Positions 992 through 15,070 of a stretch of 37,570 bases of DNA are shown piece after piece. The notes beneath the pieces were generated by a model. That model had not been told where the DNA came from. It worked only from the letters and a program-made list of their open reading frames with translations, and did not search any database. The translations under genes and the position numbers were made by a program. The stretch comes from Minisyncoccota bacterium (GTDB taxonomy: Bacteria; Patescibacteriota; Minisyncoccia; UBA6257; 2-01-FULL-56-20). The stretch's first letter is position 1. The number at the start of each line of letters is the position of its first letter. Where the stretch lies: NCBI GenBank assembly GCA_035541855.1, contig DATKMM010000031.1:1-37570 (forward strand). Direction: 5' to 3'.

Positions 992-1996
992 TTATTGCTG
1001 ACCGCGAGATACTTCGGCAACCTGTTCGCTCACCCACGCATACGTTTTCCGCATGCCGTCTTCCAGCTTCGCGCTCGGCGCCCAACCGAGCATCTCCTTA
1101 ATGAGGCGATTATCGGAATTCCTACCGCGGACACCGAGCGGACCGCTAACGTGTTTTATCGAGAGCTTCTTGCGGGCGATCTTCATCGCCATTTCCACAA
1201 GTTGGTTGATCGTCACCATTTCATCAGAGCCGATATTCACGGGTCCGGTGAAATCCGACTGCATGAGGCGGCGCACTCCTTCAATGCATTCATCAATATA
1301 TAAGAATGAACGCGTCTGCAGGCCATCGCCCCAGATCTCGATCTCACCGCCATCAGGTGCTTCCGCTACTTTACGGCACATCGCTGCCGGAGCCTTTTCG
1401 CGGCCCCCGGTCCAAGTACCCTCGGGGCCGAAAATATTATGGAATCGGGCGATCCGGACCTGGATGCCATAGTTGCGTGCAAACGAAAGATATACATGCT
1501 CGCTGAACAATTTTTCCCAACCGTATTCGCTATCAGGAGCCGCCGGATACGCCGAATCTTCAGAGCACTTTGGATCATTTGGGTCTTCCTGATTATAGAG
1601 CGGGTACATGCACGCAGAAGAAGAATAAAAGATCTTTTTCAGGTTCCCGGTCTGCTGACCGACGTGCAGAACGTTCAAATTGATCGTCGCCGAATTATGC
1701 AAAATATCCGCATCGTGCTCGCCGGTGAACACGAACCCGGCGCCGCCCATGTCGGCTGCAAATTGGTACACCTCGTCAAATGGACGGCCGAAGATCTTTT
1801 TCGCGAACAGCTCACCGCGCAGATCCCCCTCAACGAATTCATCCGCAGCCGATGGCGCGAACTCCGGCTTTTTGAGGTCAGTACCCAAAACCCAGTATCC
1901 TTCGCTTTTTAATCGTTTTACCATATGCGAGCCAATGAACCCGCCCGCGCCACATACTAATGCTGTTTTTTGTGTCATAGCTCTACTATCATACAA
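992..1996 (-). CDS. GDP-mannose 3,5-epimerase-like NAD-dependent epimerase
   Basis: Near-collinear match to GDP-mannose 3,5-epimerase (GME) signatures: GAGGFIGSH NAD motif, AADMGGAGF, FYSSSACMYP, IARFHNIFGPEGTWTGGREKAPAAMCRK, WGDGLQTRSFLYIDECIEG, NIGSDEMV and GVRGRNSDN. The track start at 1996 is TTG; the ATG at 1978 (MTQKTALVCGAGG) is the more likely start. Confidence 0.85.
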   Translation of the reverse strand: MYDSRAMTQKTALVCGAGGFIGSHMVKRLKSEGYWVLGTDLKKPEFAPSAADEFVEGDLRGELFAKKIFGRPFDEVYQFAADMGGAGFVFTGEHDADILHNSATINLNVLHVGQQTGNLKKIFYSSSACMYPLYNQEDPNDPKCSEDSAYPAAPDSEYGWEKLFSEHVYLSFARNYGIQVRIARFHNIFGPEGTWTGGREKAPAAMCRKVAEAPDGGEIEIWGDGLQTRSFLYIDECIEGVRRLMQSDFTGPVNIGSDEMVTINQLVEMAMKIARKKLSIKHVSGPLGVRGRNSDNRLIKEMLGWAPSAKLEDGMRKTYAWVSEQVAEVSRGQQ

Positions 1997-2024
1997 GATA
2001 AATACCGCTTTTCAAGTCAGTATT

Positions 2025-2053
2025 TTGCCCGGCGTCCAAATCTCTGCTACAAT
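2025..2053 (+). promoter_or_regulatory. sigma70-like promoter candidate for the PheRS gene (TTGCCC-17 nt-TACAAT)
   Basis: TTGCCC at 2025-2030, a 17-nt spacer and TACAAT at 2048-2053. The start codon at 2062 lies only 8 nt after the -10 box and no Shine-Dalgarno (SD) sequence is present, implying a near-leaderless mRNA. Confidence 0.4.
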
Positions 2054-2061
2054 GCGGAAAT

Positions 2062-3198
2062 ATGGGAGCTGTGTACACCGTGCCGATGGATGACCAGGAA
2101 CGCGCGCTCGCCGCGCTCGCGCCGCGGACGGATGCGGAGGCGATGCGCATCAAGCGCTACCTCGCGATGCCGGACCTTTCGCGCGCGCCGGGCAGCCCGC
2201 TCCGCGAGATCGTGGAAAAGGCCAGGCAGGTGCCGGCGCTCGCGGGCTTCGACGATATCGTGATCCCGGAGATCGTGCCGGCGGATGTGAGCTTCGACCT
2301 CTTCGATTTCGCCCCGGACCACCCGGCCCGCAGCCGGTCGGACACGTATTTCCTGGACGACAACCACATTCTCCGCACGCACGACACGGTGATGTGGTAC
2401 TACTACACGCAGCTGCCGGAGGTGAAGACGCGGATCGCGCGGCGGGAAAAGCTCGGCGTGGTCTGCTACGGCAAGGTGTACCGCAAGGACGAGATCGACC
2501 GGAAGCACATGAACATCTTCCACCAGTTCGGCGGCTGGTACCTGACGCCGGCCGACACGGCGCCGCTCGCGCTCGACGACCTGCGCGGCGCCCTGACCCA
2601 GATCGTGAAAGGGCTCTTCGGCGCGGACGCGAAGTACCGCTTCCTCGACGACACGTTCCCCTACACCGACCCGTCGCTCCAGGTTGAAGTTGACGTGAAC
2701 GGCCAATGGATCGAGATCCTGGGCGGCGGCATGACGAAGCAAAGCGTGTTCAAAAAGTTCGGCGTGACGGGATACAACGCCTGGGCGTTCGGCTTCGGCT
2801 TGGAGCGGCTCGCGATCATCGGCATGGAGCTGCCGGACATCCGGCTTCTCTGGTCAACGGACGAACGCGTGAAACGGCAGCTCCACCTCGGCCGGAAGTT
2901 CGTGGAGGTGAGCAAATACCCGCCGGTCGTGCGCGACATCTCGTTCATCGTGCCGAAGACGTTCGCGCCGAACGATTATTTCGACCTCGTGCGCGACATC
3001 GCGGGCGACCTCGTGGAGCAGGTCGAGCTGATCGACGAATACGAGAACGCGGCGAAGTTCGGCGCGGACAAAAAGAGCTATGCCTACCGCATCACGTACC
3101 GCTCGGGCGAGCGGACGCTCACGAACGAGGAGGTGGACAGGCTCCATAAGACCATCGAAAAGCGGACGGCGGAGGAGTTCGGCGCGACCGTGCGCTGA
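2062..3198 (+). CDS. pheS: phenylalanine--tRNA ligase, single-chain mitochondrial-type (alpha catalytic core fused to a C-terminal FDX-ACB domain)
   Basis: Class II PheRS alpha motifs are present: DHPARSRSDTYF, LRTHDT, YGKVYRKDEIDRKHMNIFHQ, FPYTDPSLQVEV and motif 3 WAFGFGLERLAI. The C-terminal roughly 95 aa (2911-3195), SKYPPVVRDISF...NDYFDLVRDIAGDLVEQVELIDEY...SYAYRITYRSGERTLTNEEV, is an FDX-ACB fold normally found at the C-terminus of PheT or in mitochondrial FARS2. Confidence 0.85.
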   Translation: MGAVYTVPMDDQERALAALAPRTDAEAMRIKRYLAMPDLSRAPGSPLREIVEKARQVPALAGFDDIVIPEIVPADVSFDLFDFAPDHPARSRSDTYFLDDNHILRTHDTVMWYYYTQLPEVKTRIARREKLGVVCYGKVYRKDEIDRKHMNIFHQFGGWYLTPADTAPLALDDLRGALTQIVKGLFGADAKYRFLDDTFPYTDPSLQVEVDVNGQWIEILGGGMTKQSVFKKFGVTGYNAWAFGFGLERLAIIGMELPDIRLLWSTDERVKRQLHLGRKFVEVSKYPPVVRDISFIVPKTFAPNDYFDLVRDIAGDLVEQVELIDEYENAAKFGADKKSYAYRITYRSGERTLTNEEVDRLHKTIEKRTAEEFGATVR

Positions 3199-3201
3199 AC
3201 A

Positions 3202-3277
3202 GATAAAACAAACCGGCTCCCATCTTCGAGCATCCTTCAAGTTTAATGCTCTCAGATGGGAACCGGTTTGTTTTATC
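3202..3277. terminator. bidirectional intrinsic terminator hairpin H1 (24-bp stem, A-tract/U-tract flanks) between convergent genes
   Basis: 3202-3225 pairs with 3254-3277 with a single C.A mismatch on the plus strand, which becomes a G.U wobble on the minus strand. The base of the stem is GATAAAACAAA...TTTGTTTTATC. The apex contains CATCCTTCAAGTTTAATGC (3231-3249). Confidence 0.6.
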
Positions 3278-3280
3278 CGC

Positions 3281-3366
3281 GCTGTAGCACAAACACCCAG
3301 GTGCCATTCCCGGTCATCCTTCAAGTTTAATGCCCGGGAATGGCACCTGGGTGTTTGTGCTACAGC
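3281..3366. terminator. long hairpin H2 (perfect 33-bp stem) overlapping the stop codon of the GT11 gene
   Basis: 3281-3313 is perfectly complementary to 3334-3366. The apex carries the same CATCCTTCAAGTTTAATGC (3315-3333) as H1, although the stems are unrelated in sequence. Confidence 0.5.
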
Positions 3367-4256
3367 GCCATCCAATCCGGCGGGACAATGCCGTCCCGGT
3401 CCGCGATCTGCGTGCGCGACCACTGCCGTGGCGCGATGACGATCTTCCCCGGGCTTTGACTGAGCCACGCGGCCCACCACCAGAACGTGCTGTTCGCGAT
3501 AATATGGTGCCTGGCGAGCGACGCGAGATGCATGGCGGCCTCCCAACCGATGTCCTGCGGGATATAGACCGTTGGGAATGGCGGCTTGATGTTCTCGCGG
3601 CACCACGGGATGTCGTCGGAAAAAATGAAAAAGCGCGGCGGCGCACCTTTGCCCGCACGGGCAGTCATCTGCCTGATAGCGCGGTCGTAGTACGCCATGT
3701 CCGTCCCGCCGAAGTTTTTTATATTGGCCGCGCTCGTGTAATCGCTGCGGCGCACGGACAGCGCGACGGAGTTCGATTTTAGGATATCCCGCGCCAAGCC
3801 TGCGGCAGCGCCCGAAAGCTCGTGCCGGAAGCTGAACGCCTGCCGCACCTCGGGGGCGATGTCCTCGAAATAGCGCCAGCTCTGCCAGAAACCCCACAGC
3901 CAGACATCGCCGCCGACGGAAAGCACGGCGGGATCGAAATGCCGCCCGGAATTTTCGCGGACGATCCTGCGGACATGAAGGATATCCTTCGCCTTTGCGA
4001 GCCCGAGGTCGAGTCCGAGCCACAGGCCCGGGACGGGAACGCGGGAGGATAATTTCGAAAGCGCCGTAAGGCGCGGTTCAATGCCAAACACGCCAAGCTC
4101 ATAACGCCGGTAAACGAATCCGGGGCGCGGAAAGCGGTCGTTCAGGAACGTCGTGTCGAGCGCCAGGCCGGTGCCGTTTTTTTTGGCAAGATCTGATCCC
4201 AGCGCGTACTGGAACATCTGGTTGCCCAACCCGCCGCGAAGCGCAACGGTCACCAT
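3360..4256 (-). CDS. GT11-family alpha-1,2-fucosyltransferase-like glycosyltransferase
   Basis: The N-terminal GGLGNQMFQYA hallmark and the C-terminal IIANSTFWWWAAWL motif of GT11 are both present. I place the start at the ATG at 4254-4256 (MVTVALRGGLGNQ), 17 nt after the upstream gene stop. The 38 Arg-rich codons upstream in the track ORF are probably not translated. Confidence 0.8.
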   Translation of the reverse strand: MVTVALRGGLGNQMFQYALGSDLAKKNGTGLALDTTFLNDRFPRPGFVYRRYELGVFGIEPRLTALSKLSSRVPVPGLWLGLDLGLAKAKDILHVRRIVRENSGRHFDPAVLSVGGDVWLWGFWQSWRYFEDIAPEVRQAFSFRHELSGAAAGLARDILKSNSVALSVRRSDYTSAANIKNFGGTDMAYYDRAIRQMTARAGKGAPPRFFIFSDDIPWCRENIKPPFPTVYIPQDIGWEAAMHLASLARHHIIANSTFWWWAAWLSQSPGKIVIAPRQWSRTQIADRDGIVPPDWMAL

Positions 4257-4273
4257 GCTTGGCTTTTGAGACC

Positions 4274-4930
4274 TTATTTGCCGGCGGGCGCCTTCGCCGA
4301 TCCGGAAGCGGTCTGCGCGCCGGCCAGGAACTGCGCGAGCGCCTGCTTGACGCTCTGGTCGCTCGGCCAATTGGTCAGGATCTTGTCCGCGATCGCCACC
4401 GTCCCGGTCACATTGCCTTCGGCGCGATAAACATCAAAGAGGCCATAAAGCGGCTGGGGGCGGTTCGGCCCGAGCTGTTCGCCTTCCTCGTAATATTGCT
4501 GGGCCGTGCTCAGGAAGTTCGCCTGGCCGGTCCGCGCGAACGCGACCTCGTTGATGGCGCCGACCAGATACAGGTCCTGGCCGAAGCTCATGCCCCTGCC
4601 GCGGGAAAGGATCGGTTGGTAGTAACCCATCAGGAATCCCACCAGCTCGTCCGTCGTCGTCGCATCCGGACTCTGCTGGACGAAGCCAAGCACGCTGTTC
4701 GCCGTGTTGCGGACTAGTTCCTCCTGGCCGATGGGCGACGGATAATCGAGCGGGACCGAAAGCCGGTTCTCGAGATCGGCAAGCGAGGTCGGCGGGTTGC
4801 CCTGCAGACCCTGGAGCGTCGCGATGAACATCTGGGCCTTCCGCAACGGCAGGTACTCGCCGTAATACGCCACCGAAAGGATGGCGACCGAGATGGCGAT
4901 GGCGATTATTTTTTTAGCTGTGGGATTCAT
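4274..4930 (-). CDS. hypothetical membrane-anchored protein (single N-terminal TM helix)
   Basis: 218-aa ORF with an N-terminal hydrophobic helix (KIIAIAISVAILSVAYY) followed by a soluble region. Its start overlaps the stop of the upstream O-antigen-ligase-like gene by 17 nt, suggesting an operon. I recognise no family. Confidence 0.6.
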   Translation of the reverse strand: MNPTAKKIIAIAISVAILSVAYYGEYLPLRKAQMFIATLQGLQGNPPTSLADLENRLSVPLDYPSPIGQEELVRNTANSVLGFVQQSPDATTTDELVGFLMGYYQPILSRGRGMSFGQDLYLVGAINEVAFARTGQANFLSTAQQYYEEGEQLGPNRPQPLYGLFDVYRAEGNVTGTVAIADKILTNWPSDQSVKQALAQFLAGAQTASGSAKAPAGK

Positions 4931-6383
4931 GTTTTTTCAGGAAATACGACGAGAACGCCAGGAACAGGAACAGGCTGATGTACATCGGCAGCACGTCGAA
5001 GATCGCGATACCCTGCACGAGATACGCGACCGGCGTGGCGAGCATAAGCGCGTTCTGGAAAACATGCACGGACTGGTGCTCGCCGGCCGGGGCGATATCG
5101 GCCCGCTTGCGCCGGAAGAACAGCCAGGCGAAGGTCGCGAAGATGGCGATATAGCCCAGGAACCCGATGATCCCGGTTTCGGCCAGATAGTCGAAGAACA
5201 CGCTGTGCGCACGGTCGAACCAGGTTTCCGTGTTCTGGCCGGGAACGAAGAAATTAGGATTGAAATGCTGGTCGAACACCGCCGTAAAGTTCTCGGGACC
5301 CCAGCCGAAAATGGGCCGCTCGAGGAATCCCTGCCACGCCTCGCCCCATACCCAGAACCGCGTTTGCGCCGAAGAATCCGTCACGCTGATCTGCAGCAAC
5401 CGCCCGCCCGGGATGTTGTTCAGAAATGGTTCGTTCCGGATGGCGAAGATGCCGAGCCCAAGGACGATCATGACACCGATGGCGACGAGCGACCATTTGC
5501 GCATACGGCTCGAACCGGCGAATGCAAGATACAGCACGCCGACGAAGATTCCCGCAGCCAAACCAAGGAATGCGCCGCGCGTCTGGCTGAGGTAGAAAAA
5601 GAAAAGGAATGCAAGGATCAGGATGCCGTAGCCCCAGGACTTGATCGCGGTCAGCTTGCCGGCAATTTTAGAAGCCGCCCAGAGATACGCCGCATAGAAC
5701 ATCGAGAACATGAGATATGGCGCAACGTACGCGGGATTGCCAAGCGATCCCTCAAAACGGCCGTCGATCAGCAGGTGCCACCATCCAGTTGGCGCAGTAC
5801 CACCCGTGTACGGACTGATAAAACCCGGATAACCGAAATTTGCAAACAGGCCATACCCCACCATGCCCGCCGCCGCGATGAGCGAATATTTAAAGAGGTT
5901 CTTCCACTCCTCTTCATGCTGGAAGAGCATCGTAAGCAGGAGGAAGAACGCATAGTAATGGAGCATCTGGAAACCGCCTTCGCCGCGCTCATAGTTCGAC
6001 CAGAAAGCCGCGTGCATATCGAGCGCGAAAAGGCAGGCCAGCAGGTATGCGCCCACGAAAGCCGTCACCGCGATCACCAGCGGCCGCTTGAACGTGGACC
6101 GGTAAAGCTGCCTGACCTCGTTCTGCTTCGCCTCGAACGCCCACCAGAGCAGCCATGCGATAAGCCCTAGCTCGACGGTAAAGCGGAAGAAGTAATCCTT
6201 GCCGCCGATGAACGGGAAGAAAATGGAGTTTACGACGATGAGCACCGCGAAGACCGCCGCGTAGCAATACCATTTCGCTATCCGTTTGAACGAGACGCCG
6301 AAGATCCGGGCAATAACGCCTCCGAGCGGGAGCGCTACCATCGTTACGAACGTTCCCGTGTAATTGAATATGGAGTCCGGCAT
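4914..6383 (-). CDS. O-antigen ligase / polymerase family (Wzy_C) polytopic membrane protein
   Basis: 489-aa multi-TM protein with the Wzy_C-type block YLSQTRGAFLGLAAG and a periplasmic loop RFWVWGEAWQGFLERPIFGWGPENF...AHSVFFDYLAETGIIG. Confidence 0.75.
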   Translation of the reverse strand: MPDSIFNYTGTFVTMVALPLGGVIARIFGVSFKRIAKWYCYAAVFAVLIVVNSIFFPFIGGKDYFFRFTVELGLIAWLLWWAFEAKQNEVRQLYRSTFKRPLVIAVTAFVGAYLLACLFALDMHAAFWSNYERGEGGFQMLHYYAFFLLLTMLFQHEEEWKNLFKYSLIAAAGMVGYGLFANFGYPGFISPYTGGTAPTGWWHLLIDGRFEGSLGNPAYVAPYLMFSMFYAAYLWAASKIAGKLTAIKSWGYGILILAFLFFFYLSQTRGAFLGLAAGIFVGVLYLAFAGSSRMRKWSLVAIGVMIVLGLGIFAIRNEPFLNNIPGGRLLQISVTDSSAQTRFWVWGEAWQGFLERPIFGWGPENFTAVFDQHFNPNFFVPGQNTETWFDRAHSVFFDYLAETGIIGFLGYIAIFATFAWLFFRRKRADIAPAGEHQSVHVFQNALMLATPVAYLVQGIAIFDVLPMYISLFLFLAFSSYFLKKHESHS

Positions 6384-6428: not shown

Positions 6429-7955
6429 TTACCGGGCGTACTCCACGGCCCTCATTTCCCGGATCACGTTCACCTTGATCTCGCCGGGATACTTCAGTTC
6501 CGACTGGATGCGGTTCGCGATCTCGCGGGCCAGCTCGAGCGCCCGGAAATCGTCTATTTTCTCCGGGACGACGAACACGCGCAGTTCGCGGCCGGCGGCG
6601 ATGGCATAGGCGCTCTTCACGCCGGGGAACTCGTTCGCGATCTTCTCGAGGTCGCCCAGCCGTTTGATGTAGTTTTCGAGCGTGCCGCGCCGGGCGCCGG
6701 GCCTGGCCGCGGAGAGGATGTCCGCCGCAGTCACGATGTAGGCCTCGGGCCGGGCGTACGGATAGTCCTCGTGGTGCGACTGCATCGCCTCGATCACCGC
6801 CTCGTCAACGTTATATTTCTTTAAAATTTTAATGCCCAGCTCGACATGCGTGCCTTCCACTTCATGGTCGATCGCCTTGCCGATGTCGTGCAGGAGCGCG
6901 CCCTTCTTCGCCACCTCGGCATTAAGGCCTAGTTCGCGCGCCATCATCTCGGCGATGTAGGCCATTTCGGTCGAGTGGATCAGCACGTTCTGACCGAAGC
7001 TCGTACGGAAATGCAGGCGGCCGAGCAGCTGGAGCAGCTCTTTCGGCAAGCCGAACACGCCGAGGTCCTGCGCCGCGGCCTCGCCGATCTCCAGCGTGCG
7101 CTTGGCGAGCTCCGTCTTTGCCTCCTCCACCTTTTCCTCGATCTTCGCCGGCTGGATCCGGCCGTCCTTCACCAATTTTTCAAGCGCCATGCGCGCCACC
7201 TCGCGGCGGAACGGATCGAAGGACGAGATGATGATCGCCTCCGGCGCTTCGTCGATGATGAACTCCACGCCCGTCGCGCGCTCAAGCGCCCGGATATTGC
7301 GGCCCTCGCGGCCGATGATCTTGCCCTTCAGGTCGTCGTCGGCGAGCGGGAACAGCGTCGTCGTGATCTCGGCCACATGCGAGCGGGCATAGCGCTGGAG
7401 CGCGGTCGTGATGATCTCCGCCGACCGCTTCTCCACCTCGTCCCGGTTCTCGCGATCGATCTTCTGGATCAGCTGGGCCAGGTCCTGCGCCCGGTCCTCC
7501 TTGGCCTGGCGGACTATCTCATCCCGCGCCTGCGCGACCGAGAGCCCGCCGATCTTTTCAAGCCGCGCGCCGATCTCGCCCTCCCGTCCGGCAAGTTCGG
7601 CCTCCTTCACCTTCAATTTTTCATCCTGAGCCCTAACCCTGGCGCTTTCCGTATCCACATCAGCCGCTTTTTTGTCGAGCGTCTCCTCTTTGCGCAGCAG
7701 GTGCGCTTCGAGGGCGTCTATTTCCTTGCGGCGCTCCTTGTCCTCGTTCTTCTGCTCGACCAAAAGCGAGGCGGCTTTGTCCTTCGCCTCGACGACGATC
7801 TCCTTCGCCTTGGCCTCCGCCTCGGCGAGATCCTTCTTTATCTTTTCCTCGACCGTCCCGAACTGCTTAGCCGCCCAATACCGGCGACCGAGATATCCCA
7901 CGGCGGCGCCTATCAAAAGAAAGGCGACCGCAGCGAATGCGGTTGTTGCTTGCAT
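6429..7955 (-). CDS. rny: ribonuclease Y
   Basis: N-terminal TM helix, a long coiled-coil region, a KH domain (GKIIGREGRNIRALERATGVEFIIDE) and an HD domain (HSTEMAYIAEMMA...LLHDIGKAIDHE). Confidence 0.9.
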   Translation of the reverse strand: MQATTAFAAVAFLLIGAAVGYLGRRYWAAKQFGTVEEKIKKDLAEAEAKAKEIVVEAKDKAASLLVEQKNEDKERRKEIDALEAHLLRKEETLDKKAADVDTESARVRAQDEKLKVKEAELAGREGEIGARLEKIGGLSVAQARDEIVRQAKEDRAQDLAQLIQKIDRENRDEVEKRSAEIITTALQRYARSHVAEITTTLFPLADDDLKGKIIGREGRNIRALERATGVEFIIDEAPEAIIISSFDPFRREVARMALEKLVKDGRIQPAKIEEKVEEAKTELAKRTLEIGEAAAQDLGVFGLPKELLQLLGRLHFRTSFGQNVLIHSTEMAYIAEMMARELGLNAEVAKKGALLHDIGKAIDHEVEGTHVELGIKILKKYNVDEAVIEAMQSHHEDYPYARPEAYIVTAADILSAARPGARRGTLENYIKRLGDLEKIANEFPGVKSAYAIAAGRELRVFVVPEKIDDFRALELAREIANRIQSELKYPGEIKVNVIREMRAVEYAR

Positions 7956-8191
7956 GAATGTGGTTAGTTATTAGATGTTCCATAAACTTTAATGACTCTT
8001 TAATGCTCTTATGATACACCGAAAGGGCAAAGAGGTCAACGGGAACCAGCACCCGGCCCGTATTCCGCACCCGTCCTCGGGTACAGCGTCGCGACGTGCT
8101 CATCGCGCGCTTCCCCCTCGGCGCCCTTCGCTTTATGTAAAAGTGGTGTTTGGTTGCTGGCGCCCCATCCACCTGCGCGCCTCCGGGACGC

Positions 8192-8236
8192 CCCTCGAAC
8201 GGGTGCGGCATCCGTTCCGGGTGTGATTTTTATTTC
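8192..8236 (+). terminator. possible intrinsic terminator in the long rny-gpmI intergenic region
   Basis: Hairpin CCC(TC)GAACGG-loop-CCGTTC(C)GGG at 8192-8221, followed by GTGATTTTTATTT. There is no annotated plus-strand gene upstream, so its target transcript is unknown. Confidence 0.3.
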
Positions 8237-8246
8237 GCGTCGCGGC

Positions 8247-8427
8247 CCCGCCCCCTCCTGCCTGCGCCGGAGAACCCGGTGGAGGCGAGTGAAACCGGCG
8301 GCAGCCGCTGGCCGCGCGCTAACCTGTCCGGGTGCCCGCTTTCCGAAGCAGGGCGGCAGGTTGAGCAGCGGCCGAGGCTGCCGCCCGGGCCGGAACAGGT
8401 TCTCCGGCGCAGGCAGGAGGGGGCGGG
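8247..8427 (+). ncRNA. candidate structured RNA, copy 1 (rod-like extended hairpin, unknown family)
   Basis: A perfect 30-bp closing helix (8247-8276 with 8398-8427) and an inner helix (8297-8305 with 8377-8385). The 71-nt core at 8306-8376 is repeated at 10544-10614 with 2 substitutions. The apical hairpin is GCUU-UCCG-AAGC. Strand is inferred from G.U wobbles. Confidence 0.45.
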
Positions 8428-8442
8428 ACAGGCAAGCGGAAA

Positions 8443-10014
8443 TTGTCCATCCGTATTAAAATGAATTCCATGGCAGACAAAAAGAAGCGCACGGCAGTCC
8501 TCATCGTCCTTGACGGGTGGGGCATCGGGCGGCACGACGAATCGAACCCGATCTATATCGCGAAACCGCCGACGTTCGAATACCTGAAGCAGACCTATCC
8601 CATGACGAGCCTCCAGGCGTCCGGCATCTCGGTCGGCCTGCCGTGGGGCGAGGTCGGCAACAGCGAGGTCGGCCACTTGACGCTCGGCGCCGGCAAAGTG
8701 CTCTACCAGTACTATCCGAAGATCACGATGGCGATCCAGGACGGCAGCCTGTTCCAAAACCAGGCGCTCCGGGACGCTTTCGCGCACGCCCTGCAGAACC
8801 AGTCGGCCGTGAACTTCGCCGGCCTCCTGACCAAGGCTAACGTGCACGCTTCGCTCGACCACCTCCTCGCGCTCGTGAAGGCCGCGCAGGCCGCCGGTGT
8901 CGCGAAGATCAACCTCCATCTTTTCACCGACGGGAAAGACAGCCCGCCGCACACCGCGCAGGTTTTCCTGAAAGAGGTCCCCAGGGAATATCTTGCGACG
9001 CTCGTCGGCCGCTACTACGCGATGGACCGCAACGAGAACTGGCGGCTCACCGAGACCGCGTACCAGGCGATGACCGGTCAGGTCGGCCAGCTGGTGGACG
9101 ATCCCGCGACACCGCTCGAAGCGGCGTACCAACAGGGCATGACAGAGGAATACCTGCCTCCCGTCCGCTTCGCCGATGATAAAAAGATACAGGACGGCGA
9201 TTCGCTCATCTTCTTCAACTACCGCGAGGACAGCATCCGCCAGCTCGCGTCGTCCTTCATCCTGAAGGACTTCGACAAGTTTCGGACCGTCGCTTTCAAC
9301 GATCTTTTCATCGCGACGATGAGCCACTACGACGACCACTTCGACGCACCCGTGATCTGCGTCGCGGACACCGTACAGGAACCCCTCGGCAAAGTTTTCT
9401 CGGACCGCGGCATGTCCCAGCTCCGGCTCGCGGAAACCTATAAATACGCCCACGTCACCTATTTCTTCAACGGCCTTCGCGAACCGCCCTTCCCCGGCGA
9501 ATATCGCACGCTCATCCCCTCGCTCTCCGGCGCGCGGCCCGAGGAGCATCCCGAAATGATGGCCGGTGCCATCACCGACCGGCTCATCGAGGCGATCAAA
9601 AACCGCGGCTTCGACTTCATCCTGGTGAACTACGCGAACGGCGACACGATGGCGCACACCTCCGATTACAACGCCGCGCTCGCCGCCGTGAAAACCATCG
9701 ACCACGAGATCGGACGCGTGCTCGCCGCCGCGGAAAATCCCGATACGATCGTCGTCATAACTTCCGACCATGGCAACATCGAGGAAATGATCAGCCCCAT
9801 CACCGGCCTTCCCGAAAGCCAGCACGACGCAAGCCCCGTGCCCTTCCATGTCGTCGCGCAAGAGCTCAAAGGGAAGGTGTTCATCAATGCCGATTCGTAT
9901 GAGCTCGAAACCCTCGGCTCCCTCGCCGACGTCGCGCCAACCATCCTCGAGCTCATGGGCATCGGGAAACCACCCGAGATGACCGGCCGCAGCATCCTTG
10001 ACGAGTTGGGATAA
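8443..10014 (+). CDS. gpmI: 2,3-bisphosphoglycerate-independent phosphoglycerate mutase
   Basis: iPGM motifs VLIVLDGWGIG, GNSEVGHLTLGAG, TDGKDSPP and ITSDHGN. The start is ambiguous among in-frame ATGs at 8443, 8461 and 8470. Confidence 0.88.
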   Translation: MSIRIKMNSMADKKKRTAVLIVLDGWGIGRHDESNPIYIAKPPTFEYLKQTYPMTSLQASGISVGLPWGEVGNSEVGHLTLGAGKVLYQYYPKITMAIQDGSLFQNQALRDAFAHALQNQSAVNFAGLLTKANVHASLDHLLALVKAAQAAGVAKINLHLFTDGKDSPPHTAQVFLKEVPREYLATLVGRYYAMDRNENWRLTETAYQAMTGQVGQLVDDPATPLEAAYQQGMTEEYLPPVRFADDKKIQDGDSLIFFNYREDSIRQLASSFILKDFDKFRTVAFNDLFIATMSHYDDHFDAPVICVADTVQEPLGKVFSDRGMSQLRLAETYKYAHVTYFFNGLREPPFPGEYRTLIPSLSGARPEEHPEMMAGAITDRLIEAIKNRGFDFILVNYANGDTMAHTSDYNAALAAVKTIDHEIGRVLAAAENPDTIVVITSDHGNIEEMISPITGLPESQHDASPVPFHVVAQELKGKVFINADSYELETLGSLADVAPTILELMGIGKPPEMTGRSILDELG

Positions 10015-10060
10015 ATAAGGTAATATAGAGACAGCAACCCCGAAAGGAGCAGCTTTATCT

Positions 10061-10414
10061 ATGAAATCGACTCTGGTCGCACTCGTGGTGCTTGCCACTC
10101 TCATCGTAGTGGCAACCATCGGAGTCCTACGAGGTACGTCTTCTGCTACCATTCTCGTGGTCACCCTGACTGCAGGAATGGCAGCGTGTGTCGCTGCCGC
10201 TCTATGCGGCTCGACATGGGACGGCGGGTTTATTCTCGCCGGCAAGATCGCCGCCGGATACATCGGCGCCGCTTTTGCCATCGGCAGCAGCAGCCGCCCA
10301 GCAGGGTTTATCATTGCGGGCGCCGCAGCAGCCAACGTCGTTGCTGTGTGGGTAGCGTACGAATTTAAACGGTCCCACATACACCGGCAGGCAATCCGCC
10401 GACTCGCCCTATAG
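10061..10414 (+). CDS. hypothetical small multi-pass membrane protein
   Basis: 117-aa Ala/Gly/Val-rich ORF with 3-4 predicted TM helices. A strong SD (AAAGGAG) lies 8 nt upstream, and a strong terminator follows the stop. Confidence 0.6.
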   Translation: MKSTLVALVVLATLIVVATIGVLRGTSSATILVVTLTAGMAACVAAALCGSTWDGGFILAGKIAAGYIGAAFAIGSSSRPAGFIIAGAAAANVVAVWVAYEFKRSHIHRQAIRRLAL

Positions 10415-10417
10415 TTC

Positions 10418-10458
10418 CCGCTCCGTGCACGCGTCGTCGTGTCCGGAGCGGTTTTTTT
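10418..10458 (+). terminator. intrinsic terminator
   Basis: CCGCUCCG (10418-10425) pairs with CGGAGCGG (10444-10451), extended by an inner GCACG/CGUGU helix, and is followed by a run of 7 T (10452-10458). Confidence 0.7.
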
Positions 10459-10479
10459 ATAATGCCAAGAATTGCGTAT

Positions 10480-10673
10480 GCCGGGACGGGATGCCGTTCC
10501 GGCACTCCGAAAACCCGTCGCGCCGAGTGAAATTTGCGGCATCCGCTGGCCGCGCGCTAACCTGTCCGGGCGCCCGCTTTCCGAAGCAGGGCGGCAGGTT
10601 GAGCGGCGGCCGAGGATGCCGCCCGAAGGCGCGGCAAGGTTCGAGGAGGGCAGGGACAGCATCCCGTCCCGGC
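10480..10673 (+). ncRNA. candidate structured RNA, copy 2 (same family as 8247-8427)
   Basis: A 15-bp closing helix GCCGGGACGGGAUGC (10480-10494) / GCAUCCCGUCCCGGC (10659-10673). A second helix 10517-10524 / 10628-10635 includes a U.G wobble, and a third is 10536-10543 / 10615-10622. The conserved core is 10544-10614, and it shares the GAGUGAAA junction (10525-10532). Confidence 0.45.
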
Positions 10674-10677
10674 GTGT

Positions 10678-10683
10678 TATAAT
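10678..10683 (+). promoter_or_regulatory. -10 box (TATAAT) positioned for a leaderless transcript of the downstream membrane-protein gene
   Basis: TATAAT at 10678-10683, then exactly 6 nt (GAACCC), then ATG at 10690. There is no SD. Confidence 0.35.
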
Positions 10684-10689
10684 GAACCC

Positions 10690-11058
10690 ATGCACTGGCT
10701 CATGAAACTCATCCTTATCGTGGCCGCCAACGCCCTCGCGCTCTGGCTCGCCAACCTCTGGGTCCCCGGCTTCGTCGTGCAGGCCCCCATCCTCGGCCTC
10801 GCCATCATCGCCCTCACGCTCACCGTCCTGAACTTCCTCCTGAAGCCCCTGCTCACCCTCGTCCTCGGCCCCATCATCATCCTTACGCTCGGCCTCGGCC
10901 TCATCGTCGTGAACGCCATCGTCCTGTGGTCGCTCGCCTACCTGGCCAACCACCTTGACTTTATGCATGGAAGTATTACGATACAAACGATTCCCGCGCT
11001 CTTCTTCGCAACCCTCATCGTGAGCGCCATAAACTTTATCGTCCATTCAGCCACCTAA
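10690..11058 (+). CDS. DUF360 / phage holin family 4-like (YvlD-type) membrane protein
   Basis: 122-aa four-TM protein. The sequence LWLANLWVPGFVV...LNFLLKPLLTLVLGPIIILTLGLGLIVVNAIVLW matches the characteristic DUF360 pattern. Confidence 0.65.
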   Translation: MHWLMKLILIVAANALALWLANLWVPGFVVQAPILGLAIIALTLTVLNFLLKPLLTLVLGPIIILTLGLGLIVVNAIVLWSLAYLANHLDFMHGSITIQTIPALFFATLIVSAINFIVHSAT

Positions 11059-11062
11059 TTCC

Positions 11063-11275
11063 ATGGCCATCATACAGATCCTGCTTTCCGTCGCCATCAT
11101 CACGCTCATCCTCCTCCAGCAGCGCTCGGCCGGCGTGTCCGGCCTCATGGGCGGCGGCGACAGCGGCGGCGTGTACCAGACGCGGCGCGGAATGGAAAAG
11201 ATGTTTTTCTATGCGACCATCGTCCTCTCGGCTGTTTTCGTGATCCTCGCGGTGTATCAGCTGTTCGTTTCCTAA
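11063..11275 (+). CDS. secG: preprotein translocase subunit SecG
   Basis: 70-aa two-TM protein with the typical SecG layout: LLSVAIITLILLQQRSAGVSGLMGGG...GMEKMFFYATIVLSAVF. Confidence 0.7.
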   Translation: MAIIQILLSVAIITLILLQQRSAGVSGLMGGGDSGGVYQTRRGMEKMFFYATIVLSAVFVILAVYQLFVS

Positions 11276-12922
11276 ATGTCTTTTTTTAAAAAGCTTTTTT
11301 TCGCGTTCACCGGAAAAGAACGCATCGCCTTTCTCGCCTGTTCGGCCATCGCAGTGGCAAGCTTCGCGATCGTCATGAGCATGGTCGTCGCGCAGGCGAC
11401 CGTCTCGGTCCCGACCCAGGGCGGCACCTATACCGAAGGCATGGTTGGGCAGCCGGAATACGTGAATCCGGTGACGGCGCAAAGCGAGGCCGATCTCAGC
11501 CTGGTCAAGCTGGTCTACGCCAACCTGACCGACCTGGCGGACGACATCACCACCTCGACGGACGGGCGGACCTGGACCGTGCATCTGAAAAACGGCCTTA
11601 CGTGGCAGGACGGCCAGAAGCTTACGAGCGATGACGTCATTTTCACCGTCCAAAGCATCCAGGCCGCGGACGCCAACTCGCCGCTCTATACCAGCTGGGA
11701 GGGCGTCACGGCAAGCCGCGTGAGCGAACTCGAGGTCCAGTTCACGCTCGCCAATCCCTATGCGTTCTTCGGGGATGACCTCGATGATCTCTATATCATC
11801 CCCAAGCATATTTTCGCCGACGTGCCGCCGGGCAATTGGTATCTCTCGGACTACAACCTGAAGCCGGTCGGCAGCGGGCCGTATGAGTTCACCGCCTACG
11901 ACGAACAAGATGACGGCTTCATTTCCGGCTACCACCTCACGGCATGGAGCGGCTACGCCGGCCGGCAGCCTCTCATCCAGAACTTCAACGTCCAGTTCTT
12001 CCGCAACGAGGCCGACCTCGTCGCCAGCTTCAATGCGGGACAGGTCGACGGCTTCGGCAACCTTTCGGCCGGAGACCTCGCGGAGATCAGCCGGCCCTAC
12101 AATCTGTTCGCGTGGCGCACGCCGGGCTACTACGCCATTTTCTGGAACGAAAGCAAAAACATCGCCCTGCAGGACCCGGCTGTCCGTCAGGCGCTTTCGG
12201 AAGCCGTCGACCGCGACGCGCTCGTTTCGCAGGCCCTGGCCGGCTATGGCGCCGCCGATGACGGGCCGATCCCGCCGGACGCCCCGTACTTCGTCCCGAC
12301 CGGGGAAAGCTCGTCGCCCGATCTCGCTTCGGAAACCCTTTCGCAGGACGGCTGGACCATAAGCTCTTCAAGTCCGTTCCGGTCGAAAACGATCCAGAAG
12401 ACATCCGTGCCGCTCGCCGTCAACCTCACGGTGCCCGATATCAATTTCCTCGTCACGACGGCAGGGATCCTCCAGGGAGCGTGGCAGTCCATCGGCGTCC
12501 AGGTGAACATCGCCACCGACACGCCGGCCGACCTCGTCGCCAATGCGATCAAGAACCGCGCGTACGAATCCCTGCTTTTCGGCAACGTGCTCGGCCCCAG
12601 TTCCGACCTTTACTCGTTCTGGGACTCGTCACAGCGCTTCTCGCCCGGCCTGAACCTCGCCATCTACCAGAACAAGGCCGTGGACTCGCTTATCGAGGCG
12701 GCGCGCCAGGAGCTCGACGACGCTTCGCGCACGCAGGAGTTTGCCGCGGCGGAACAGGATATCGTAAACGACGATCCCGCCGTCTTCCTCTATTCCCCGG
12801 ACTACCTCTATATTTCAAGCCGGGACGTGCAGGGCGTGGCGACCGGAACGCTCGTCGATCCGTCCGACCTCTCGCGCGAAATGACGGGGTGGTACCTCGA
12901 CACGGCGAGGGTGTTGAAATAG
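11276..12922 (+). CDS. ABC-transporter family-5 (peptide/nickel type) substrate-binding protein, N-terminally membrane anchored
   Basis: 548 aa with an N-terminal TM anchor and an SBP_bac_5-like block LTWQDGQKLTSDDVIFTVQ. The start ATG directly abuts the secG stop. No permease or ATPase genes are adjacent. Confidence 0.7.
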   Translation: MSFFKKLFFAFTGKERIAFLACSAIAVASFAIVMSMVVAQATVSVPTQGGTYTEGMVGQPEYVNPVTAQSEADLSLVKLVYANLTDLADDITTSTDGRTWTVHLKNGLTWQDGQKLTSDDVIFTVQSIQAADANSPLYTSWEGVTASRVSELEVQFTLANPYAFFGDDLDDLYIIPKHIFADVPPGNWYLSDYNLKPVGSGPYEFTAYDEQDDGFISGYHLTAWSGYAGRQPLIQNFNVQFFRNEADLVASFNAGQVDGFGNLSAGDLAEISRPYNLFAWRTPGYYAIFWNESKNIALQDPAVRQALSEAVDRDALVSQALAGYGAADDGPIPPDAPYFVPTGESSSPDLASETLSQDGWTISSSSPFRSKTIQKTSVPLAVNLTVPDINFLVTTAGILQGAWQSIGVQVNIATDTPADLVANAIKNRAYESLLFGNVLGPSSDLYSFWDSSQRFSPGLNLAIYQNKAVDSLIEAARQELDDASRTQEFAAAEQDIVNDDPAVFLYSPDYLYISSRDVQGVATGTLVDPSDLSREMTGWYLDTARVLK

Positions 12923-13087: not shown

Positions 13088-15070
13088 ATGATCAAAAAAT
13101 CAGAACCACAGCCGCAGAAAGACCGGCCGCACATCCGGCCGCCGGAGCTGCGGCCCCGGCCGGCCAAAACCGCGCCGAAAGAACCGGGTGCCGTCCAGGC
13201 CGGCCGCGACGCGGAACGGAAGCCGAACGCCGACCGACCGCGCGGCCCGCGTGCGCCGCGGCGGCAAAGTCTCCCGCCGGTGGGAGCGATATCCCGTTCG
13301 AGCGCTTCGAAGTTCGGTAATAGCCACGGCGGCCAGTTCGGCGCCAACGGTAACGCCGGCCGCGACGCGGCCGGTGCCGGCGCGGCGCCGCGCGGCAATC
13401 CGGACGCGGTGCGCTTCGTCCCGCTCGGCGGCCTCGAAGAGATCGGCCGCAACTGCATGTTCCTCGAATACAGGAACGAGATCGTCCTGATCGACGTCGG
13501 CCTCCAGTTCCCGGAGGAAGAGACGCCGGGCATCGACTACATCATCCCGAACGTGCAGTATCTCGAAAAGAAAAGGCAGAACATCCAGGCGATCATCCTG
13601 ACGCACGGCCACTACGACCACATCGGCGCCCTGCCGCACCTTCTGGCGCGCCTCGGCAATCCCCCGATCTACGCCACCTCGATCACGAAAGCGATCATCG
13701 AGAAGCGCCAGGACGACTTCCCGAACTCGCCGAAGATGAAAGTGATCACCATAAAGAACGGCGACGAGATGAAGATCTCGAACGCCTTCACGGCGCGCTT
13801 TTTCGGCGTGCCGCACACGATCCCGGAAACGACCGGCGTGCTCATGAAGACGCCGATCGGCAACATCGTGCATTTCGCCGACTTCCGCCTCGACTATACG
13901 GATGAGGGCGAGCCGCAGGGACTCGAGGAGTTCGAGCGCATCGGCAAAATGGGCATCCACAGCTTCATGGTGGACAGCACGGCCGCCGAACGCCCCGGCC
14001 ATTCCGTTTCGGAGAAGACCGTCGAGCGGAACCTCGAAGAGATCTTCCGCCAGGCGGAGGGCCGCATCGTGGTCGCCACATTCGCATCGCTCATCACCCG
14101 CATCGCGGAGATCATCAAGATCTCCGAGAAGCTCGGCCGCAAGGTCGCCCTGAACGGCTACTCGATGAAAACGAACATCCAGATCGCCGAACAGCTCGGC
14201 TTCGTGAAGGCCAAGGAGGGCACGATCGTCGCCGTCGAAGAGCTCGGCAAGTACAAGGATGACAAGATCATGATCCTCTCGACGGGCGCGCAGGGCGAAT
14301 CGAACGCCGGCCTCATGAAGATGATCAACGGCGAACACCGCCATATCAAGATCAAGCCGGGCGACACGTTCGTGCTCTCGTCCTCGGTCATCCCGGGCAA
14401 CGAGCGCAGCGTCCAGTCCGTGAAGGACAACCTCGCGCGCCAGGGCGCCATCGTCTACCACTCTGCGCTCGTCGACATCCACTCGTCCGGCCACGCGCCC
14501 AAGGAGGACCTCAAGCTCGTGATGAAGCTCATGAACCCGAAGTTCCTCGTCCCGGTGCACGGCTACTACTTCATGCGCGCCGCGAACGGCCAGTCCGCCC
14601 GCGAGGTGGGCATCCCGAAGGAGAACGTCATCCTGATGGACAACGGCCAGGTCGCCGAGCTCACGCCGGACAAGTTCACGATCACCAAGGAAACCGTGCC
14701 GGCATTCTACGTCATGGTGGACGGCCTCGGCGTCGGCGACGTCGAGGAGGTCGTGCTCCGCGACCGGCGCGCGCTCGCCGCGGAAGGCATGATGATCATC
14801 ATCCTCACGATGAGCCACAACGGCGGCAAGGGATCGCACCTGCTGAAAAACCCCGACATCATCTCGCGCGGCTTCATCTATCTGAAGGAGAACCAGGACC
14901 TCCTCGACGAGATCCGCAAGCGGATCCGCGGCCTCATGCAGCGCCTGCCGCAGAACCAGGACATCGAGCCGGATTACCTGAAGACGCTCATCCGCGACCA
15001 GGTCGGCCAGTTCATCTACAACGCCACCCGCCGCCGCCCGATGATCCTCCCGGTGATAATTGAGATATAA
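13088..15070 (+). CDS. rnj: ribonuclease J with a roughly 105-aa Arg/Pro-rich N-terminal extension
   Basis: A metallo-beta-lactamase/beta-CASP core begins at VRFVPLGGLEEIGRNCM and carries the motifs ILTHGHYDHIGALPHL and IHSSGHA. There is no in-frame ATG between 13088 and the conserved core. Confidence 0.85.
   Translation: MIKKSEPQPQKDRPHIRPPELRPRPAKTAPKEPGAVQAGRDAERKPNADRPRGPRAPRRQSLPPVGAISRSSASKFGNSHGGQFGANGNAGRDAAGAGAAPRGNPDAVRFVPLGGLEEIGRNCMFLEYRNEIVLIDVGLQFPEEETPGIDYIIPNVQYLEKKRQNIQAIILTHGHYDHIGALPHLLARLGNPPIYATSITKAIIEKRQDDFPNSPKMKVITIKNGDEMKISNAFTARFFGVPHTIPETTGVLMKTPIGNIVHFADFRLDYTDEGEPQGLEEFERIGKMGIHSFMVDSTAAERPGHSVSEKTVERNLEEIFRQAEGRIVVATFASLITRIAEIIKISEKLGRKVALNGYSMKTNIQIAEQLGFVKAKEGTIVAVEELGKYKDDKIMILSTGAQGESNAGLMKMINGEHRHIKIKPGDTFVLSSSVIPGNERSVQSVKDNLARQGAIVYHSALVDIHSSGHAPKEDLKLVMKLMNPKFLVPVHGYYFMRAANGQSAREVGIPKENVILMDNGQVAELTPDKFTITKETVPAFYVMVDGLGVGDVEEVVLRDRRALAAEGMMIIILTMSHNGGKGSHLLKNPDIISRGFIYLKENQDLLDEIRKRIRGLMQRLPQNQDIEPDYLKTLIRDQVGQFIYNATRRRPMILPVIIEI

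Follow-up and report, generated by a model that had tools for sequence, protein, structure and literature searches.

The structure upstream of gpmI is most likely a rare palindromic repeat in which conservation is centred on the apex. Two copies lie in the window (the whole 37.6-kb stretch of DNA that was analysed), before gpmI and before a holin-like gene, and a third lies before mreB on a metagenome contig; their 73-nt apex is almost invariant, while the arms that enclose it have diverged but still pair within every copy. The observed pattern is far beyond chance, and what the earlier note had picked out here is real and statistically solid. The note's proposal of a covarying structured RNA is only partly supported: the conserved apex and the paired, diverging arms stand, but they are not by themselves proof of selection at the RNA level. 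The explanation that we favour, with confidence a little under even, is a non-autonomous, MITE/Correia-like palindromic repeat that is mobile or once was. Judged from comparison of the loci, the element has inserted at at least three unrelated intergenic sites (before gpmI, the holin-like gene and mreB) and does not code for protein. A functional RNA made from the plus strand is possible and stays alive as a minority hypothesis.

Anatomy and divergence of the three copies

The element measures about 180–215 bp across the copies. Coordinates of the two copies in the window, their parts and the surrounding genes are given in Table 1.

Table 1. Parts of copies 1 and 2 and neighbouring features (positions in the window)
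Feature	Position	Strand	Remarks
RNase Y gene	6429-7955	-	divergent from gpmI
Long inverted repeat	8050..8223	.	neighbour of copy 1 but unrelated to it
Copy 1, entire imperfect palindrome	8231..8443	+	213 nt; ends 26 nt before gpmI ATG 8470
Copy 1, left arm	8247..8276	+	30 nt, perfect complement to 8398-8427
Copy 1, AACC...GGTT unit	8273..8401	+	identity 95% to L005 copy (122/128), 84% to copy 2
Copy 1, GAGTGAAA	8287..8294	+	same in every copy; unpaired in single-copy folds
Copy 1, apex core	8305..8377	+	73 nt; UCCG loop, 5-nt CGGGY bulge
Copy 1, right arm	8398..8427	+	has AGGCAGGAGG and GGGACAG, motifs common to the other copies
gpmI	8470-10014	+	lies between the two copies
117-aa hydrophobic ORF	10061-10414	+	
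TTATAATG, left of 8-nt direct repeat around copy 2	10457..10464	+	possible target-site duplication or -10 box
Copy 2, entire imperfect palindrome	10477..10676	+	200 nt; 13 nt before holin-like ATG 10690
Copy 2, left arm	10480..10515	+	
Copy 2, apex core	10543..10615	+	73 nt
Copy 2, right arm	10638..10673	+	complementarity to left arm 81%
TTATAATG, right of 8-nt direct repeat around copy 2	10677..10684	+	contains TATAAT
holin_4_2-like gene	10690-11058	+	
SecG	11063-11275	+	
SBP_bac_5 protein	11276-12922	+	
RNase J	13088-15070	+	

The perfect 30-bp helix that had been described at the base of copy 1 is present, and it is extended imperfectly outwards as far as 8233-8441. The two copies share a direct repeat of 115 nt (8273-8387 against 10511-10625, identity 90%), and the near-identical core, originally given as 71 nt, comes to 71–73 nt with just two differences, T/C at 8333 and A/G at 8367. 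The junction that had been called shared and unpaired is GAGTGAAA, which is found at 8287 and 10525 and nowhere else in the window, and which the folds leave unpaired. The reported double change from G-C to U-A was also recovered, in the GGCAGC/GCUGCC helix (alignment columns 40 and 114). Internal loops in the folds of copies 1 and 2 are small or one-sided, the largest having 8–11 nt on the 5' side.

With the third copy (on the JGI metagenome contig that we call L005) the gradient of conservation becomes apparent. Identity across the three copies is 97–100% in the 73-nt apex; in the AACC...GGTT unit copy 1 and the L005 copy are 95% alike, and each of them has 84–87% identity to copy 2; between copies the outer arms reach only about 60–70% identity and indels are required to align them. 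The apex diverges less than the remainder in each of the three copy pairs (Fisher p=2e-6, 9e-3 and 5e-7). The statement that the closing helices have no sequence in common was an overstatement, as the arms are diverged homologues that retain AGGCAGGAGG and GGACAG and carry mirrored indels; the right arm of copy 1, for example, has gained GGGGCG, and its left arm holds the mirror sequence CGCCCC. Pairing is nonetheless maintained in the folded outer arms, where Watson-Crick pairs make up 32 of 33 pairs in copy 1, 26 of 29 in copy 2 and all 22 in the L005 copy. The perfect arm of copy 1 is Watson-Crick at 30/30 positions and the one outer-arm pair of this copy that is not Watson-Crick is a G.U; in copy 2, the minimum-free-energy fold of the plus strand has three G.U pairs in the outer arms. 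The apex of the L005 copy has a 1-nt deletion that shifts all six reading frames, which excludes a peptide-coding repeat.

Elsewhere in the window, at 3202-3368, there are hairpin twins that have an identical 18-nt centre, differing perfect stems and small loops. Their layout, with a conserved centre and variable arms, is the same as that of the element. Taken together, the twins and the element hint at a common, undescribed way of generating or using hairpins in this lineage.

Insertion before unrelated genes

The genome is of Paceibacteria type, within the candidate phyla radiation. Those gpmI homologues that have a named source are labelled Candidatus Paceibacterota, and the closest non-identical one has 78% identity. 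Three relatives retain the gene order RNase Y(-)/gpmI(+)/holin/SecG/SBP/RNase J; in them the RNase Y-gpmI spacer is 113, 115 and 118 nt long versus 515 nt here, and the gpmI-holin spacer 8, 52 and 67 nt versus 675 nt here. These spacers leave no room for either copy, so copies 1 and 2 are lineage-specific insertions relative to the genomes compared, which are distant ones (gpmI 77-78% amino-acid identity). A promoter block of RNase Y (TAATGACTCTTTAAT...GATAC...GGTCAA) is conserved and can be aligned up to about position 8042, where extra DNA begins in our organism; it consists of the inverted repeat listed in Table 1 and then copy 1, and the two together make up the excess of about 400 nt over the relatives. 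In two of the three relatives the 117-aa hydrophobic ORF is missing between gpmI and the holin-like gene, and one relative (L004) has an extra 81-aa ORF after the gpmI-holin gap. The earlier note measured the distance to the first possible gpmI start codon, the TTG at 8443, but the recorded start is the ATG at 8470.

The third copy occupies positions 1717-1897 of its contig, 39 nt before mreB and in the same orientation, and is enclosed by its own inverted repeat. The flanks of the three copies are unrelated, and the contig has no gene in common with the window. The element is missing before mreB in the two loci whose MreB is most similar, L046 (amino-acid identity 94%) and L047 (91%). The nearest mreB loci are distant as well, with 76-79% nucleotide identity, and homology to L005 begins exactly at the mreB start codon.

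Reading of the sequence between the element and its downstream genes revealed a -10-like TATTAA at 8453-8458, between copy 1 and the gpmI start, a -10-like TATAAT at 10678-10683, 6 nt before ATG 10690, and TTGAGA-17-TACAAT between the L005 copy and the mreB start. Because TATAAT-like boxes lie between each copy and the start codon, the downstream genes are probably transcribed from beyond the element, with leaders that are very short or absent. On neither strand is the hairpin followed by a U-tract, and the element is therefore not an intrinsic terminator.

Signs of a transposition machinery were sought in the same DNA. The window encodes no transposase, reverse transcriptase or integrase, and a cognate autonomous element or transposase is likewise missing from roughly 9.5 kb of additional flanking sequence. 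Direct repeats flanking the copies are of different kinds: at copy 2 it is TTATAATG, twice, with the left one 12 nt away from the palindrome; at copy 1 it is CATCCGT, twice, a 7-mer expected at chance level; and around the L005 copy there are none of at least 6 nt. Where this organism has been assembled independently, the assemblies are broken or folded back at the site of the element.

Searches for further copies and for known RNA families

An exact 25-mer from the apex was used as a query and gave one match in the JGI metagenomes, which is the L005 copy, and no match in 185,579 GTDB species-representative genomes or in IMG/VR. The gapped three-block pattern GAGTGAAA...CTAACCTG...CAGGTTGAG had no match in the representative genomes, and the 40 matches of its two-block version in IMG/VR were all chance ones as judged by blastn. 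Plasmids and phages yielded no blastn match to the element, and an nhmmer profile built from the three copies detected no fourth one in the loci of the relatives or in about 9.5 kb of additional sequence from the same organism, which thus has two copies in about 47 kb. Hairpins of the arm type that are empty, that is without the central unit, do not occur in the window. At the protein level, a six-frame peptide bait for spurious ORFs over the other copies found no match, and when the 104-aa ORF that overlies copy 1 was used in a full HMMER scan, it returned only two unrelated low-complexity matches.

The earlier failure to match the element to SRP, 6S, RNase P, tmRNA or common riboswitch consensus sequences was borne out in Rfam 15, where the search had no match at the gathering score or, noise aside, at E<=10. 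The whole window contains two tRNAs and nothing else at the gathering score, the best match in 8000-10900 at E<=10 is nhaA-I with 15 bits against a threshold of 37, and L005 has no match. We found nothing specific in the literature on MITEs or structured RNAs of candidate-phyla-radiation (CPR) organisms.

Folding and strand symmetry

On the plus strand the minimum free energy is -158.5 kcal/mol for copy 1 and -138.7 kcal/mol for copy 2, with z of -9.5 and -8.9, respectively, and none of 200 dinucleotide shuffles equalled either value. The minus strand gives -162.0 and -134.3 kcal/mol for the same copies, and for the L005 copy the energies are -128.6 (minus) versus -127.8 kcal/mol (plus). In the palindrome self-alignment, where each copy is aligned to its own reverse complement, there are 5 G.T versus 8 A.C pairs, and an A.C pair is a G.U pair on the minus strand. 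The view that the G.U wobbles are viable on the plus strand only is not supported, as the minus strand folds equally well or better and A.C pairs outnumber G.T pairs. RNAalifold, run for both strands on the 148 well-aligned columns, gave -70.3 kcal/mol for the plus strand, where the covariation term was +1.34 (not favourable), and -74.2 kcal/mol for the minus strand, where it was -0.66, with two-sided (compensated) changes at 6 pairs per strand; the middle helix is disrupted in two of the three copies in this alignment. Since the element is a palindrome in DNA, any ‘compensatory’ change compensates equally on the minus strand, and with both strands folding and ‘covarying’ alike the compensation is not assignable to RNA. 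The apex never varies and so it neither supports nor opposes a fold for this part.

Some hints of strand asymmetry were seen. The apex loop is a UNCG-type UCCG on the plus strand alone. Positions that do not pair on the plus strand are mostly purine-purine: the copy-specific arms contain 8 purine-purine mismatches versus 1 pyrimidine-pyrimidine mismatch (p=0.04). All three copies are oriented like their downstream gene. The purine-rich mismatches and the uniform orientation hint at a strand-specific role.

A palindromic intergenic repeat and its possible mechanism

Dispersal, empty orthologous sites, unrelated flanks and lack of coding capacity together place the element in the class of small palindromic intergenic repeats. 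How could its arms differ between copies and still be complementary within each? Template switching is documented to generate, in a single event, perfect stems, ‘compensatory’ changes of several bases and mirrored indels, and it makes inverted repeats longer and more uniform (PMC8794818, PMC8604942). Switching across the hairpin during replication would copy one arm from the other, and the palindrome could lengthen in the process; such events, selection on the hairpin, or both probably keep the arms complementary. A DNA mechanism of this kind fits the mirrored indels, and the arm that is Watson-Crick at 30/30 positions, better than stepwise compensation does, and since template switching accounts for arms that differ yet remain complementary, selection on RNA is not required. 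The apex would be kept either for a function of its own or because propagation depends on it, as a hairpin that is recognised in trans. If transcribed, the element would form an interrupted hairpin of about 85 bp with the perfect 30-bp duplex of copy 1 at its base. This base is a duplex of RNase III type and could alter the stability or the insulation of neighbouring transcripts, an effect for which Correia and ERIC elements are the precedent.

Several findings count against a mobile repeat. Just three copies are known; the window encodes none of the enzymes listed above; the flanking direct repeats differ in kind from copy to copy; the copies are all co-oriented with the downstream gene and have plus-strand mismatches rich in purines; and conservation is lowest at the ends and highest in the centre, a pattern that neutral decay of a transposon does not predict. 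A neutrally decaying transposon does not explain the invariant apex. Its conservation may come from its being the target of a trans-acting enzyme, from an RNA function, or from mobility of the central unit alone.

Alternative explanations

The same observations can be read at the RNA level, with the element as a multi-copy structured non-coding RNA from the plus strand whose 73-nt apex is functional (in protein binding or base pairing) and whose long basal helix needs only to be double-stranded, either for stability or for RNase III processing. We hold this to be unlikely but worth keeping in play. It would agree with an apex that stays nearly identical while the remainder diverges, with arms that differ but pair in every copy, with the one clean exchange of G-C for U-A and with two C-to-U changes in L005 that give G.U on the plus strand (columns 36/118, and CCGG to CUGG by hand pairing); the exclusive UNCG-type loop, the purine-purine mismatches and the co-orientation with downstream genes in 3/3 copies also point this way. 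Set against these are fold energy, wobble counts and alifold, all without a strand signal, the lack of a conserved promoter upstream and of a U-tract terminator downstream on either strand, the disrupted middle helix, an apex whose invariance leaves its fold with no covariation to back it, and the absence of the element from relatives and from the representative-genome collection, while the mirrored indels and the fully Watson-Crick arm better suit a mechanism acting on DNA. It is rather improbable, in our estimate, that the 73-nt apex is a sequence-constrained module, be it an RNA or a hairpin ligand, riding on a rod-like hairpin that moves between loci; such a module would possibly also move between CPR genomes, with the basal duplex drifting freely as long as it pairs. 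Still at the RNA level, the element could be thought of as a 5' leader that regulates gpmI and the other two genes in cis, as a riboswitch, attenuator or thermometer would, given its stable predicted structure and its position directly 5' of three genes in sense orientation. We regard this as very improbable, since the genes in question (gpmI, holin-like and mreB) are functionally unrelated and their orthologues in relatives are not preceded by the element, the -10-like boxes downstream of it leave the transcripts leaderless or short-leadered, no Rfam riboswitch is matched, and neither a terminator/anti-terminator alternative nor sequestration of a start codon is visible. A leader that is specific to gpmI and ancestral is excluded by these sequence comparisons at the evolutionary distance of the relatives examined.

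At the DNA level, some insertion sequences insert into the loops of palindromic units, as IS1397 does in enterobacterial BIMEs, and with this precedent one may ask if only the central AACC...GGTT unit (~130 nt) is mobile or duplicated, landing in the loops of existing intergenic hairpins so that the arms are derived from the target. Identity between copy 1 and the L005 copy does fall sharply at AACC/GGTT, with 122/128 positions identical inside and about 65-75% identity plus indels outside, and the same genome has other hairpins with long, copy-specific stems and small loops at 3202-3368. The arms, however, are homologous between copies (they share the 10-mer AGGCAGGAGG and GGACAG), the window has no empty hairpin of the arm type, and the edge of identity with copy 2 lies further in, at the GAGTGAAA junction, which makes a gradient rather than one fixed edge; we see only a slim chance for this scenario. 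To a site that acts as DNA, namely a cruciform or hairpin recognised by a protein (for instance a nucleoid protein, a recombinase or an enzyme of HUH type) or a structure with an influence on the adjacent promoter, we likewise assign little probability. The perfect symmetry of the two strands, the TATAAT-like box 2-26 nt downstream of each copy and a centre conserved as a binding site would be are in line with it, but there is no candidate gene for the enzyme nearby, 73 invariant nucleotides far exceed what a binding site needs, and a symmetric dimer site has no need of the conserved asymmetric features (GAGTGAAA and the CGGGY bulge).

Comparison with known repeats and RNAs

In a classical MITE the terminal inverted repeats are the conserved part, as they are recognised by the transposase. 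The element has the size and non-coding nature of MITEs (about 50-500 bp; here 180-213 nt, with no related ORFs in protein collections) and their dispersal with presence or absence at orthologous sites, three loci being occupied and the syntenic relatives empty. Its ends, on the other hand, are about 60-70% identical while the centre is 97-100% identical, so conserved terminal inverted repeats are missing and we do not file it as a MITE. The Correia element (NEMIS) of Neisseria resembles ours in being about 100-200 bp long, non-coding and palindromic, and in lying mostly just before genes with insertion polymorphism between strains (PMC10969869). The inverted ends of Correia form an RNA hairpin that is cut by RNase III, and the element can carry promoters (PMC10969869). 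By analogy, the perfect 30-bp duplex modelled for copy 1 would be a Correia-like substrate for RNase III. Correia differs by its conserved 26-bp terminal inverted repeats, the TA duplication that flanks it and its hundreds of copies per genome, whereas in our element the ends are least conserved.

The ERIC/IRU repeats of enterobacteria are also imperfect palindromes; they measure about 127 bp and lie in intergenic regions that are transcribed, their sequence is highly conserved across species at non-orthologous positions and they affect mRNA stability (PMC10969869, PMC2229807). ERIC is conserved over its full length and widespread in one family, in contrast to the element, in which conservation fades from the apex towards the base and which has an extremely narrow distribution. 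REP and REPIN are extragenic hairpin repeats in which compensated stem variation is common as well, and presumably it is the DNA hairpin that is recognised in trans; REP has 20-40 nt, and REPIN combines conserved arms with a variable loop, opposite to the pattern seen here. With this opposite conservation, and with no RAYT or Y1/HUH transposase among the proteins of the window, REP/REPIN was rejected. The stem-loop repeat families of cultivated bacteria (PMC2267715) are a generic class of repeated intergenic sequences with stable stem-loop folds, mostly of unknown function, to which the element, with no known relative in sequence, is likened by description only. Template-switching hairpins (PMC8794818, PMC8604942) represent a mutational mechanism and not a family of elements; the mechanism accounts for the arms, but neither for the invariance of the apex nor for the spread to new loci.

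Known RNAs and cassette-like structures were considered as well. 6S RNA does not fit, as there is no large two-sided central bubble, two copies occur in 2.2 kb and the element is missing in relatives. SRP RNA, RNase P, tmRNA and Y RNA-like candidates have no Rfam 15 score near the gathering threshold. The attC site of integrons was dismissed because here it is the ends that vary and the centre that is conserved, there is no integrase and the neighbours are syntenic housekeeping genes. A retron msr-msd would have the inverted repeats that flank the element, but gpmI, the holin-like gene and mreB follow downstream and the window encodes no reverse transcriptase. A riboswitch or other cis-leader was set aside for want of a tie to orthologous genes of one pathway.

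Significance for Patescibacteria

CPR genomes are tiny and have few known mobile elements or regulatory RNAs. Small palindromic repeats are familiar in cultivated bacteria and, to our knowledge, essentially undescribed in CPR genomes. The kind of element is known already; the variant is odd and its family tiny, and what makes the family unusual is its inverted conservation, with a fixed apex and ends that are free to change but paired. This makes it a test case for telling selection on RNA structure from maintenance of a palindrome at the DNA level. It also calls for caution in RNA discovery that is based on covariation, since a DNA palindrome will produce ‘compensatory’ changes on both strands. 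On the practical side, the element causes metagenome assemblies to break and to fold back at its locus. If the apex is functional, it would be a new non-coding RNA of CPR bacteria, and otherwise the element would be an ordinary decaying repeat; should the functional apex be mobile as well, the element would represent a new class of mobile structured non-coding elements in Patescibacteria.

Assembly breaks and sequence boundaries at the element

The palindrome at copy 1 of the element (8231-8443, upstream of gpmI) breaks or chimerises assemblies. In an assembly of the same organism from another sample, contig L001 begins with a fold-back, such that its positions 1-235 are the reverse complement of window 8247-8481, after which it runs on as window 8428 onward, while the neighbouring contig L053 ends, at its own start, at about window position 8219. 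Judged from these two contigs alone, the fold-back could also represent a real inversion of the palindrome centre. A further discontinuity is found at the third copy, on metagenome contig L005, where G+C rises from 0.42 (1-1700) to 0.63 (1900-5457). The shift falls exactly at the element and indicates either the boundary of a genomic island or that sequences from two organisms were joined there into a chimera.

Short direct repeats flank both copies in the window (see table). The one around copy 2 may represent either a target-site duplication of 8 bp or a -10 box present in duplicate, and the one around copy 1 is at chance level.

Other inverted repeats

A third long inverted repeat directly adjoins copy 1 on its left side and has a terminator-like hairpin with a T-run (8208-8233) at its end. 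Its sequence is unrelated to the main element, its overall structure is weak (z=-2.3), and it is also missing from the short RNase Y-gpmI spacers of the relatives. The adjacent, near-perfect twin hairpins between the convergent pheS-like (2062-3198) and GT11 (3360-4370) genes fold with an energy of -122 kcal/mol (z=-21). The 18-nt apex, CATCCTTCAAGTTTAATG, is the same in both, but the stems differ. This layout of conserved centre and copy-specific arms is also that of the main palindromic element. The twin hairpins match no family in Rfam, with only generic miRNA-hairpin hits below threshold, and matches to the apex 18-mer in IMG/VR are at chance level. Past the right end of the window, contig L052 of the same organism carries another inverted repeat, flanked by the genes for CTP synthase and a histidine kinase.

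Repeats and other features of the window and the organism
Feature	Position	Strand	Details
Twin hairpins	3202-3277 and 3279-3368		stems 32 bp and 39 bp
Third long inverted repeat	8050-8223		arms 32 nt, 78% complementary; centre 110 nt
Direct repeat around copy 1, CATCCGT	8209-8215 / 8448-8454
Hydrophobic ORF	10061-10414		117 aa; between gpmI and holin-like gene
Direct repeat around copy 2, TTATAATG	10457-10464 / 10677-10684
Isoleucyl-tRNA synthetase	18276-21938	-	1220 aa; His_Phos_1 domain inserted, residues 522-690
Inverted repeat of GAGCTAGGAG-like units	L052 7750-7873		arms 37 nt, 78% complementary; spacer 50 nt

Coding features

The architecture of the isoleucyl-tRNA synthetase, with its inserted histidine-phosphatase domain, is also recorded for the orthologues of the relatives. 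The small hydrophobic ORF has its own terminator, read from sequence at 10421-10458; the corresponding site is empty in two of the three relatives and occupied by an unrelated 81-aa hydrophobic ORF in the other. The gpmI-holin spacer appears to be a preferred site of small insertions.
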